Virus record (IMG/VR): IMGVR_UViG_2718218449_000009 | Length of the DNA: 32,583 nucleotides | Strand: one strand, 5' to 3' | DNA from: a virus | Lineage: Duplodnaviria > Heunggongvirae > Uroviricota > Caudoviricetes | Part shown: one piece after another, positions 26,601 through 29,600 of the stretch | How the letters are laid out: the number at the start of each line of letters is the position of its first letter | Position numbering within the stretch: position 1 is the first letter of the stretch | Program-made: the position numbers

Positions 26601-29600
26601 TCTTGTGGGAGGTTCACGCTTCACCTCCGCAGAGATCAAACGCTGGATGCAAGACATCGCAGGTGCATTTCTGCATCTGTGACAAGGTAAGGAGTTCAGA
26701 TTGTGGTCGCATTTAAGTCCCCTTAAATGCGCAGAAGTCACCGGAGTTGTTCAAGCTCCGGTGACATTATTATGGAAGGTTGATACTAAAAAATCAAAAA
26801 TTGAATATCATTGGCGATAGTCTAGCTTGTGATATCCACAAGCTACTTCAATGAAGCGACGAGTAACATTTTGTGTCATCCATGTTTTTTCAGTTAAATG
26901 CCACACCCAGTTCAAAATTTGCTGATGTGTTGAACATGTACTAAGCGGGATGTTGTATTCATAAGCAACATTGATTCCGCAAAATCGGTGTCGTGTCATG
27001 ACCGATTCACGTTGACCTGCGCCCTGTTGAGTGCCTGGGGATATTCTTGCTCGATAGTTAATATCATAGTAGTTACTTTACTTTCATACCATAGCACGGT
27101 TGAAAAAGTGATTATTACTCAAAAATAAACCTCACCATCAACCATATATTTGAGAGCACTTATCGCCTGCTGGGCGGATATTACTTTCATTAAAGGATAG
27201 TGTTTAAAAACAATGCCATTCATAAAATAGATATCACAGGTTTTATTATCCGTATTAATTATGATTTTTTCGAATATTTTATAGGCAAGTGTACGGCATA
27301 ACTCTCGTCCATTTTTACTGGTTAAGTCAATAGCATAAAAATCACTGAATGAATTTACACCTTTACTCTTCAAAGTTTTCAATGATACCAAAGCTCTTCG
27401 TAATTCCTTATCTAATAGTCTTATTTTCTCTGCTATAGCGGTAACTTCAGGCGCGACAGACAATGCAACGATTAAATTATTAATTTTCATCTGAAGCTCA
27501 ATAATTTTTAACTCTAAAGTTTCATTAGCATCTTTCTTGTTTTCAACTGGTTGAATTTTGCTACAATTAAAAAGCAATTCATTAATGATATTATAATCAA
27601 CCAAATCTCTCTTTATTGATGGCCTGTCACATCGATGTAATCTTCTCATCGGACAAACATAATAGCCATGCAAACTTCCAGATACCGCATGAACAATCAT
27701 GGTATTACCACAAGCCTCACACTTCATAACTGTTCGAAGTAGATTTATTAGCATAGGATTCTTGCTACTATTGCTAATACCAAAAGGTGCCAACCGAATT
27801 TCCTGTACAGCGTAAAACAAATCATCTGATATGACTCTGGGATAATAGCCAGCGATTTCACTTATCCCTTTCCCTCTTGCACGATATGAAGGTACGCATA
27901 TACCTATCAGAGCTTTATTCGCTAATAATTTTTCAATTACAGAAGGCCCCCATGCACTTTTTTTTCCTGAGAAATTCTTTACAGCATGATCATTTAAATA
28001 CTTGGCTATTGCATTCAATGAGCGCCTTTCCATCCTGAGTTTAAAAATTAGCTCAATAGTTTTCACCCTGTCGGGGTCTGGAACAAAAGCCGTTCTTTTG
28101 TCATCTAAGGAGAGCCATCTCGGACAAGACGCCGTCATAATCGTACCTGATTCCAGTGCATCCTGCCGTTTTTTCTTCCATGATAATTTAACCCGACTTG
28201 ACTTTATCTCGCTTTCTTCATTTGCCCTTTGTGCTATAAGTATGGCTTTTATTAATGAATATGGCTCATTCAAAGAGTCAATATTATAGACTGTATTGTC
28301 GCAAAGAGTTATAACATCAATACCGTGATTCAAAATCAATTTCAGACGTTCAATCGCTTCACCGACTTTTTCTCTTGAAAGTCTGTCCAGACTTTCAACT
28401 AACAATGTAGTTCCTGGCAATATATAACCATGCTCTATAGCATCTAAAAATTCCGAAAAAGCTCCTGATTGTGCATGCTTTCCTTTGAATGCACTTAATC
28501 CTAAATCTTCATATGTTATGGTATCAAGATAATAATCACTATTTACCTTTAACCATTCAGCAATAAGTCTTCTCTGTCGGTTTAATGAGTCGCCAGACAT
28601 CTGACCTGGTGATGAAAATCGCATATATGCTATGGCTTTTTTCATGGTGACACCTGCTAACTTATGCTTTTATAAACCTTAGTGGTGAGATATAATTTTT
28701 GTTTAATTTTTATTTAAAAAGACAATTACGATCACACTATCTTGAATATACAACAATAATCGTATTGCAATTTGCTTACGCAATAATCTTGAAGGCACAA
28801 AAGAATACACAAAAACTAAAAACATTAACAAAAGCGGCCCATGTAAAGATATGAACCGCCATATTGCAGTCTTTTAAAAGAAATTATTTTTAATGTGGTG
28901 TGCTTCGTGACAATAAATTAATAACCAACACACCGGCACAAATCAACATCATGCCTATAACGGCTGGCAGGTCCAGCCGTTGGCCGAAAAACCCCCATGA
29001 TAGTAAGCTAATCAGGACAATACCGACTCCTGACCAGATAGCATAAGCAATCCCTGTAGGAATATAAGCCAGCGTCTGAGCTAATAACCAGAATGATGCA
29101 CAATAACAAATAATTGTACCAACAGATGGCCATAACCGTGTAAAACCTTCTGAAAACTTCATTAAGGTTGTACCAATGACCTCTGCAAGTATTGCACCAC
29201 CAAGATAAATATAAGGGTTCATAACATATTCTTTCCTGTTCAAACTGGAGAGAATTGTACTACAGTTTGAACTCAACTCACCTGTTTCATCATTGTGTAC
29301 CCATTGATGTTCTTTTATATACCCTCAATACCCGTTTCATCGCGGCACTCTGGCGACACTCCTTAAAAATCAGATTCGTGCTCACCTTTCCTTCCCGTTC
29401 TTCTCTGGTAGCGAACCGGTAATACACCGTTCGCCAGACCTTACCATCAACGACCAGGATTCCTGCCCGCGCCATTTTAGCCGCAGCCTGATTTATGCTG
29501 GTTACGGTTGCACCTGTTACCGCGGCAACGTCCTGTGCACAGAAGCTCTTATGCGTCCCCAGGTAATGAATAATTGCCTCTTTGCCCGTCATACACTTGC

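Follow-up and report, generated by a model that had tools for sequence, protein, structure and literature searches.

A candidate recombinase-only unit inside the AT-rich emrE–ybcK block of a DLP12-type prophage

Main

How did a gene for a large serine recombinase come to lie inside a prophage that has a tyrosine integrase of its own, and what arrived with it? The question is raised by a 32,583-nucleotide stretch of Caudoviricetes DNA (IMG/VR record IMGVR_UViG_2718218449_000009; hereafter the window, meaning the whole stretch), in which a block at 26618-29289, between ren and the ninB-position gene ybcN, carries emrE and ybcK. The latter is a K-12 gene of unknown function that occurs in about a quarter of complete E. 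coli genomes, and the literature searched held no functional study of its product. The original prediction, made from the sequence alone, was that the two genes form a recombinase-borne cassette or secondary element nested inside the prophage. We found that this region, emrE–ybcK, is already known from DLP12-type prophages of E. coli and is built of separately acquired pieces; at least 80% of a 3.6-kb region is found in 1,360 of 5,426 complete E. coli genomes. We assign a probability of about 0.5 to the reading that this layered mosaic includes a ~2-kb insert, ylcJ–ybcK, made by its own serine recombinase at a site at the end of emrE and now stranded here. Because the gene pair is annotated in K-12 and widespread, the block itself is not new. 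What we add is the dissection of a proposed ~2-kb recombinase-only unit with a base-resolved pair of candidate sites, and a pattern among homologues that suggests serine-recombinase mini-elements aimed at phage genomes. The analysis thereby gives ybcK a concrete hypothesis, with two candidate recombination sites named to the base: the palindrome formed by the joined ends and the empty site where emrE stops.

The block stands out by composition. Its G+C content is 0.368, compared with 0.527 for the whole window and 0.50-0.53 in ybcN, ren and P on either side, and it has the third lowest value among 599 sliding windows of the same length, the minimum lying at 26651. This calculation bears out the prediction of a markedly AT-rich stretch of about 2.7 kb, and domain searches agree with its gene content. 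All genes of the block lie on the minus strand, the direction of transcription of this DLP12-type lambdoid prophage. emrE (28890-29222) encodes a 110-residue SMR efflux transporter (PF00893, E 3e-35; RefSeq annotation). ybcK (27119-28645; 1,527 nt) encodes a 508-residue large serine recombinase with a zinc-ribbon domain.

A discrete segment with a matching empty site

The ends of a possible insert are seen in phage 4A7 (L007), where a 38-nt imperfect direct repeat (84% identical, spacing 2,073 bp) brackets ylcJ–ybcK plus 283 bp. One copy lies at the emrE stop codon and the other 283 bp past the ybcK stop. Common to both copies is a 15-16-bp core, CATTAAAAATAATTT, that overlaps the stop codon of emrE; in the window this core occupies 28881-28895, within the imperfect palindrome TTAAAAATAA-T-TTCTTTTAAA (28873-28893). 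From the junction comparison and the palindrome analysis, we designate 28873-28895 (minus strand; core located exactly) a candidate attL.

If the bracketed segment had been inserted, loci lacking it should read straight from emrE into the sequence beyond the right repeat. We built this predicted empty site as a 508-bp chimera, joining the emrE 3' end to the sequence past the right repeat of 4A7, and then found it: F467 and Rb-50 (L097 and L098), in which emrE directly adjoins an esterase gene, match the query over its full length in one piece, and IMG/VR holds four further empty-site contigs. Over the same 4.1-kb query, occupied loci are longer by 2,073-2,074 bp. At base level the empty site reads ...CACCACATTAAAAATAATTT|CTTTTGAATCGAG, the left junction ...CACCACATTAAAAATAATTT|ATTTTTAAACGAC and the right junction GGTCACGCCCCCATTAAAAATAATTT|CTTTTGAATCGAG. 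Left junction and empty site agree up to the core, right junction and empty site agree from the core on, and C(C)ATTAAAAATAATTT (15-16 bp) is common to all three. A K-12-type locus differs from a B2-type remnant by a segment of ~2,083 bp that starts at the same core, its right junction being blurred by divergence. The segment is thus discrete, with defined ends and a matching empty site, as is expected of a nested element.

The candidate sites are also symmetric. Joining the ends of the unit in reconstruction yields a perfect 21-bp palindrome, TTAAAAATAA-T-TTATTTTTAA; the 11.5-kb 4A7 locus has just one other perfect palindrome with arms of 9 bp or more. In the empty site, 8 of 10 positions per arm match around the same centre. 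Longer versions of the candidate sequences are GAGAGGCTGGTCACGCCCCCATTAAAAATAATTTATTTTTAAACGACTAAAATATGGAGG for the joined-ends site and TTATTTTCACGAAGCACACCACATTAAAAATAATTTCTTTTGAATCGAGTGAAATAGGTT for the empty site. Such dyad symmetry is what a site for a serine-recombinase dimer would be expected to show. The symmetry centre of the joined-ends site is a single base, where serine integrase sites have a central dinucleotide, and the identical core spans 15-16 bp. In E. coli, ybcK starts 230-260 bp from the left site; in the window, the leader between them (28646-28880, minus strand) includes a degenerate small open reading frame (ORF) resembling ylcJ (RefSeq 28703-28825).

An intact recombinase gene under purifying selection

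The reading of an insertion made by YbcK calls for a recombinase of the right kind. YbcK matches the resolvase (PF00239, E 4.7e-19), recombinase (PF07508, E 1.8e-14) and zinc-ribbon (PF13408, E 8e-8) families, as well as PHROG 95 'integrase' (E 6.5e-120), and we classify it from these matches as a large serine recombinase with catalytic domain, recombinase domain and four-cysteine zinc ribbon all present. In an alignment of 22 family members at 40-100% identity, the catalytic residues R9, S11, D87, R88 and R91 (Y-x-R9-x-S11 and D87-R88-x-x-R91) and the zinc-ribbon cysteines C309, C312, C331 and C339 are invariant; residues ~370-440 are variable. The closest solved structure is the SPbeta integrase (SprA/YokA), matched at profile level only (residues 141-466, E 7e-6).

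The gene is intact, at 1,527 nt, in every variant examined, and it is under purifying selection: comparing the 4A7 allele group with the K-12/O157/Turner group gives a ratio of non-synonymous to synonymous divergence (dN/dS) of 0.08, and comparisons within groups give 0.07-0.27. The copy in the window differs from the K-12-type allele by eight nucleotide changes (synonymous divergence, dS, 0.012). With its three domains, invariant catalytic and zinc-ribbon residues and a dN/dS of 0.08, the enzyme appears active, and the recombinase is no degenerate pseudogene; had it been one, this would have spoken against the original prediction.

Such selection could also reflect another job. YbcK might be a domesticated phage accessory enzyme, kept for DNA inversion or deletion, multimer resolution or phage exclusion; purifying selection persists even where the right-hand site is missing, and homologues sit at accessory positions, either in the nin region or past tail-fibre genes where Gin/Cin/Pin-type invertases are found. 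Small serine recombinases of K-12 cryptic prophages have, moreover, recently been linked to phage defence (PMC12529663). Against this, PADLOC models gave no match for YbcK, nor for EmrE, YbcN, YbcV or a 63-residue ORF downstream of ybcK, and we rejected a defence role for YbcK on that ground. Nor did we find conserved inverted repeats bracketing an invertible segment; the best pair (27078-27096/28514-28532; 19 nt at 79%) is unsupported elsewhere. A DNA invertase of the Gin/Cin/Pin type (~190 residues) does not fit the 508 residues and the integrase domains of YbcK, whose size and domain set are integrase-like. In K-12, furthermore, a Rho/NusG-dependent terminator in the untranslated leader keeps ybcK silent (PMC4150792), and by analogy the copy in the window is probably silenced at the level of transcription as well. 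We consider the domesticated-enzyme explanation improbable.

The gene contains one further symmetric sequence, a perfect 24-bp palindrome, TTGAAAGTCTG-GA-CAGACTTTCAA (28375-28398; 11-bp arms and a 2-nt centre), which encodes the invariant catalytic motif ESLDRLS; only one other perfect palindrome in the whole window has arms of 9 bp or more. We rejected the sequence as a recombination site. No more than 6-8 bp of it survive in homologues, and the palindrome therefore probably arose as a side effect of the codons for S-L-D-R-L-S.

Homologues of YbcK in other prophages

YbcK belongs to a family of ~505-520-residue proteins, 40-61% identical, from Atlantibacter, Yersinia, Pantoea, Erwinia, Kluyvera, Ewingella and Citrobacter, and the members examined always lie in prophages. 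Some follow a tail-fibre assembly gene at the prophage end; one of these is 540 bp from the 3' end of ssrA and another adjoins lepA, and these two might be the phage's own integrase. Others sit, as here, in the nin region between the replication genes and Q.

Three homologues (48-60% identical; L015, L034 and L035) are bracketed by long, diverged direct repeats of phage genes. In L015 the repeat is 229 bp long at 82.5% DNA identity and covers the first 60 residues of a DUF1367 gene (97% protein identity), with a fragment of that gene upstream and the full gene downstream. The L034 repeat (about 380 bp) is the 3' part of replication gene P, and the L035 repeat (248 bp) the 5' part of a 126-residue gene. 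In all three, 150-480 bp separate the end of the repeat from the recombinase start downstream of it, much as in E. coli (230-260 bp). This layout is the pattern left by integrative elements that carry a part-copy of their target gene, as judged from the arrangement of the repeats. The insertions in L015 and L019 are not independent, since the two loci have a common right flank. Attempts to define a crossover-region motif across homologues gave anecdotal resemblances only (GTCAC, TTTCGA and TAAAATAT).

These loci raise the possibility, which we hold tentatively and think rather unlikely, that the YbcK family consists of minimal, recombinase-only integrative elements of 2-7 kb that target temperate-phage genomes rather than the bacterial chromosome. 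Under that proposal, such elements might insert into or beside conserved phage genes (the emrE end, P, DUF1367 and antirepressor-like genes), sometimes supplying a substitute gene end, and spread via phage particles, a scenario we put forward with similar reserve. Equally speculative is its corollary that K-12 ybcK encodes an active, E. coli-native integrase with a ~40-bp site pair. If the sites work, E. coli would have a native serine integrase with short sites, and small recombinase-only elements parasitising phage genomes would add a layer to the mosaic origin of lambdoid phages. If they do not, the region is another dissected case of moron shuffling and decay.

Two of the contigs carry features of separate interest. 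In L015, a lambdoid contig which encodes the homologue 60% identical to YbcK, a 646-residue SIR2_2-domain gene (3755-5695) lies in the nin region and is a candidate anti-phage gene within the same exchange zone. In L035, from Pantoea coffeiphila, the repeat-bracketed segment contains ~1.25 kb duplicated exactly in tandem, both copies having the same ORFs (8740-9366 and 9991-10617); the duplication is either real or an assembly artefact.

Insertion by YbcK or passive shuffling

We infer that the insertion was the work of YbcK itself, with the palindromic core as the site at which it recombines. Arrival would have been a conservative site-specific recombination at the AT-rich, dyad-symmetric site overlapping the emrE stop codon. 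A YbcK dimer would bind each imperfect-palindrome site and two dimer-bound sites would synapse; the Ser11 nucleophiles would then cut both strands around the site centre, and rotation of subunits followed by religation would leave the unit between left and right hybrid sites. Later, in the window, two ordinary deletions (~230 bp at CTATC and 662 bp further on) removed the right part of the unit together with neighbouring phage genes, leaving a copy that, on this reading, cannot excise. We favour this reading because the polymorphism was predicted and then found, the joint is dyad-symmetric, the enzyme is intact and selected, and three homologues show a parallel layout.

Several observations weigh on the other side. 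No circular junction was found in viral (IMG/VR) or metagenome contigs. Alternative insertion sites were likewise not found: 80 of 80 left junctions in IMG/VR have emrE upstream, and all six right junctions in metagenomes have the esterase flank. With a single insertion site in all data, one historical event would explain the pattern. Flank comparisons show no sign of recent or repeated mobility, and flank trees are compatible with a single event. The empty genomes F467 and Rb-50 cluster on the left flank and interleave with occupied genomes on the right flank only. The right 160 bp of the 2,073-bp unit are a frameshifted fragment of the neighbouring phage gene for a P22AR-C antirepressor-like protein, which in Turner-type loci continues to its natural end, and Turner-type loci outnumber 4A7-type loci in IMG/VR (24 versus 5). 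The fragment means that a single unequal or illegitimate crossover, with a Turner-like phage and an emrE–esterase phage as partners, could have produced the 4A7 arrangement. The identical core of 15-16 bp, with similarity extending to 38 nt, exceeds what a large serine recombinase needs and could be homologous emrE 3' flank, and the left junction of the window type resembles a hybrid of the two flank types. That purifying selection persists in arrangements lacking the right-hand site may mean that ybcK is kept for something other than moving itself, or that the site was lost recently. Finally, most family loci, including the tail-end loci L009, L011 and L013, have no flanking repeats at E <= 0.01.

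Much of this would follow if ybcK were passive cargo, that is, an orphan integrase gene from another phage shuffled into its present position by ordinary homologous or illegitimate phage recombination. The 38-nt repeat of 4A7 would then be a partial duplication of the emrE 3' end from one unequal crossover, between a Turner-like phage (emrE-ybcK-P22AR-C') and an emrE–esterase phage, and the empty genomes would represent the second parent. Besides the single site, the missing circle and the lack of a phylogenetic sign of repeated events, this account draws on the pseudogene fragment at the right end of the unit, on the greater number of Turner-type loci and on the similarity of the two flank types beyond the core, as homologous emrE 3' flanks would show. 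The interval between ren and ybcN, moreover, has at least seven fillings with sharp common outer boundaries, most without a recombinase, and the family members at prophage ends by ssrA or lepA could be integrases of the phages themselves. What passive shuffling leaves unexplained is the novel joint that falls exactly on the site, with a perfectly palindromic joined form of 21 bp; three more independently placed homologues bracketed by diverged phage-gene repeats, with the recombinase start by the repeat end; and an intact ybcK with a dN/dS of 0.08 in more than 1,300 genomes. We regard passive shuffling as a serious rival, if on the unlikely side.

emrE and the exchange slot between ren and ybcN

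Did emrE arrive together with the recombinase? It has the marks of a lambdoid moron: deviant composition (G+C 0.417, compared with 0.50-0.53 in the flanks), a terminator of its own and variable presence between conserved phage genes. The terminator-like hairpin (28833-28860, minus strand; identified by a scan, with a homologous hairpin in other variants) is of the intrinsic type and lies 3' of emrE, within the inserted unit. Some ~3,700 genomes carry emrE and ~1,360 the block; roughly 2,000 E. coli genomes have emrE without ybcK. Examples are the B2-type remnant near fliE (L006; emrE-ybcL-ybcM), the empty-site genomes and individual contigs; variants of the interval without emrE also exist. 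The stop codon of emrE marks the insertion boundary, with ybcK on its far side. emrE is therefore an older, independent moron, predating and separable from ybcK.

The interval itself is an exchange slot. Its right boundary is common to all variants, homology between the window and other E. coli loci and phages starting at 26798/26799, and its left boundary falls within the last 36-57 nt of ren (29290-29592, minus strand; ORF matching the Ren-like PHROG 142). There, homology to the cargo-free loci L004 and L005 starts only at 29326/29347. Because these last ~36-57 nt differ between phages with and without the cargo, the end of ren is the left edge of the slot.

Seven different fillings occur between these boundaries, several without any recombinase. 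The window has emrE-ybcK-remnant, as do about 301 genomes, mostly O157:H7; the K-12 type is emrE-ylcJ-ybcK-ybcL-ybcM (675 genomes), phage 4A7 has emrE-ylcJ-ybcK-esterase (172 genomes), and phage Turner and its relatives have emrE-ylcJ-ybcK-P22AR-C' plus small ORFs. The remaining fillings are two hypothetical genes (L004), a TagO-like gene (L005) and a full-length P22AR-C gene with a HEPN gene (L101). Shared outer boundaries around seven fillings identify the ren–ybcN position as a general exchange slot and the AT-rich block as a mosaic. The comparison with K-12 DLP12 and block-free loci that had been proposed as a check thus returned the shared gene pair, but also a slot open to cargo of many kinds.

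A single cassette comprising emrE and the recombinase, with attachment sites at the outer edges of the 2.7-kb block, is very improbable in this light. The two genes are both AT-rich and adjacent in more than 1,300 genomes, and the slot boundaries are sharp, the left one lying inside the last codons of ren, so that the block supplies a different ren C-terminus. Yet the presence/absence boundary falls between emrE and ybcK, emrE-only loci exist in the numbers given above, and the same outer boundaries enclose cargo that lacks a recombinase. In the homologues, it is the start of the recombinase gene and not its end that faces the element end. As for att-like inverted repeats at both outer boundaries, which the original prediction had proposed to search for, we recovered only weak pairs (28 nt at 71% complementarity; 26783-26810/28686-28713) that are not conserved in other variants. 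Of the predicted nested element, then, foreign-looking cargo in the ren-to-ninB position and evidence for a recombinase-associated insertion stand, while the union of emrE and recombinase in one cassette does not.

At the right edge of the slot (26737-26799), motif alignment revealed a promoter-like element, TTGATT-N17-CATAAT (26769-26797, minus strand), that is kept in all seven variants despite differing surrounding bases. It doubles as an inverted repeat, TTGATT-N6-AATCAA (26737-26797 region, minus strand), and is followed by a hairpin with a 10-12-bp stem found by the scan (26737-26765, minus strand). Element and hairpin together might serve as a regulated entrance to the nin region, or correspond to lambda tR2.

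In the ybcK-free variant L101, a HEPN-domain gene and a 133-residue partner (4592-5388) come after the full-length P22AR-C gene, possibly another defence or toxin pair in the ren–ybcN position.

Fate of the copy in the window

Of the two element ends, only the left is present in the window: no second copy of the core lies within three mismatches in 26001-29400. The search for recombinase sites thus yielded one of the expected pair. Similarity to 4A7 and Turner stops 66 bp past the ybcK stop, at CTATC, and the bases after this motif match Turner ~230 bp further on, past another CTATC; by this comparison, a ~230-bp microhomology deletion removed the rest of the unit with its right-hand end. Downstream, the last 54 residues of the 63-residue ORF derive from a 105-residue phage ORF (IMG/VR contig L160), relative to which the window has a 662-bp deletion at about 26974. 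As the two deletions removed the right end, the copy in the window looks immobile. It appears to be a stranded, decayed insert in a heavily deleted prophage, with an intact gene and one candidate site that has no partner.

The gap between ybcK and ybcN had been described as about 500 bp of non-coding sequence, a description that is too simple. All on the minus strand, it contains the 66-bp ybcK 3' flank common to phages 4A7 and Turner (27053-27118), ending at the CTATC microhomology; a 19-codon remnant of the 3' end of the P22AR-C gene (26996-27055; about residues 157-175), recognised by tblastn against the full-length L101 gene and by comparison with Turner; the 63-residue ORF (26808-26999; PHROG 2559), a deletion-fusion remnant by comparison with L160; the promoter-like element and its hairpin; and a 32-residue ylcH-like ORF (26614-26712; ORF search and annotation) that overlaps the start of ybcN and belongs to the conserved phage backbone.

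Breakpoints just past ybcK differ between variants because each has its own origin: a K-12-type break at the end of ybcK, homology within the P22AR-C gene, and the CTATC deletion of the window type. We rejected a hot spot 40-66 bp past the ybcK stop as an integron-like capture site, and with it an integron-like cassette array, the cargo downstream of ybcK having no repeated site at its ends and the breakpoints varying as described. The K-12-type 3' flank was considered as a fragment of another gene and rejected, as it is found only in the K-12-type context.

Comparison with known systems

The nearest relative of the block is the emrE–ybcK pair of K-12 DLP12 (b0543, b0544), which has the same genes in the same order past ren and the same left junction at the emrE stop. 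The K-12 pair is followed by ybcL and ybcM, which are absent from the window, as the original prediction had suggested; K-12 also has a different 3' flank past ybcK, where the window has its deletion-scarred remnant. The window prophage further differs from the K-12 type in lying at icd and in having an IS3-family element past ybcN.

YbcK shares with SPbeta SprA/YokA the three-domain architecture and the catalytic Ser/Arg/Asp set. The candidate sites of YbcK are short and dyad-symmetric, its similarity to solved integrase structures is remote (profile E 7e-6), and no directionality factor was identified. SprA/YokA and the phage serine integrases of PhiC31, Bxb1 and A118 integrate a whole phage into the bacterial chromosome, each as the phage's only integrase. 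In the window, by contrast, the phage has a tyrosine integrase, and YbcK is associated with a ~2-kb unit within the phage genome.

Large serine recombinases also move small elements of Firmicutes such as Tn4451 (TnpX), Tn5397 (TndX) and SCCmec (CcrAB). Their cargo includes resistance genes, their circular intermediates have been demonstrated, and several of them insert at more than one target. Like them, the ybcK unit is compact, leaves its empty site clean and has a target similar to the joined ends. Unlike them, it is essentially a recombinase only, resides in phages of Enterobacterales, has a single site and yielded no circle in the contigs searched.

e14 and phage 21, at icd, are integrative elements that bring along a replacement for the end of the gene they target. 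L015, L034 and L035 resemble them in having repeats of a gene, one copy completing an intact frame and the other a fragment, and differ in their phage-gene targets (DUF1367, P and the 126-residue gene) and in a recombinase of serine rather than tyrosine type. In the E. coli ybcK unit, unlike e14 and phage 21, only the last few emrE codons and about 30 nt are repeated. Lambdoid morons are the closest parallel for emrE and the alternative fillings of the slot, which are low in G+C, have a terminator of their own and come and go between conserved flanks; the ybcK unit is set apart from ordinary morons by repeat-bounded ends and a recombinase.

Prophage setting

For this window, the ybcK copy looks like an immobile remnant in a heavily deleted prophage. 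ybcN (26162-26617, minus strand), a NinB-like gene of the conserved phage backbone, is abutted by an IS3-family element with a programmed-frameshift transposase (24897-26110). Beyond that element (24897-26150 region) come ybcV, ybcW, ylcI and nohD; since these follow it directly, ninE, ybcO, rusA, Q and the lysis genes of K-12-type loci are missing. The gene loss beside ybcN looks like an IS-associated deletion, which would have left the prophage defective.

On the other side of the block, the order from the end of the window is int (tyrosine integrase; 31441-32583, plus strand), xis, truncated O, P and ren. RefSeq calls the O replication gene (within 30287-31450) an N-terminally truncated pseudogene, and because it lies only ~100 bp from xis/int, the immunity, N and recombination regions of the prophage must have been deleted. 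The region matches E. coli strain 272 (NZ_CP018239; L001) at 100% identity; there, just past window position 32583 (10598-11601 of that locus), the prophage integrase adjoins icd. In other strains icd is the attachment locus of e14 and phage 21; DLP12 of K-12 is located elsewhere.

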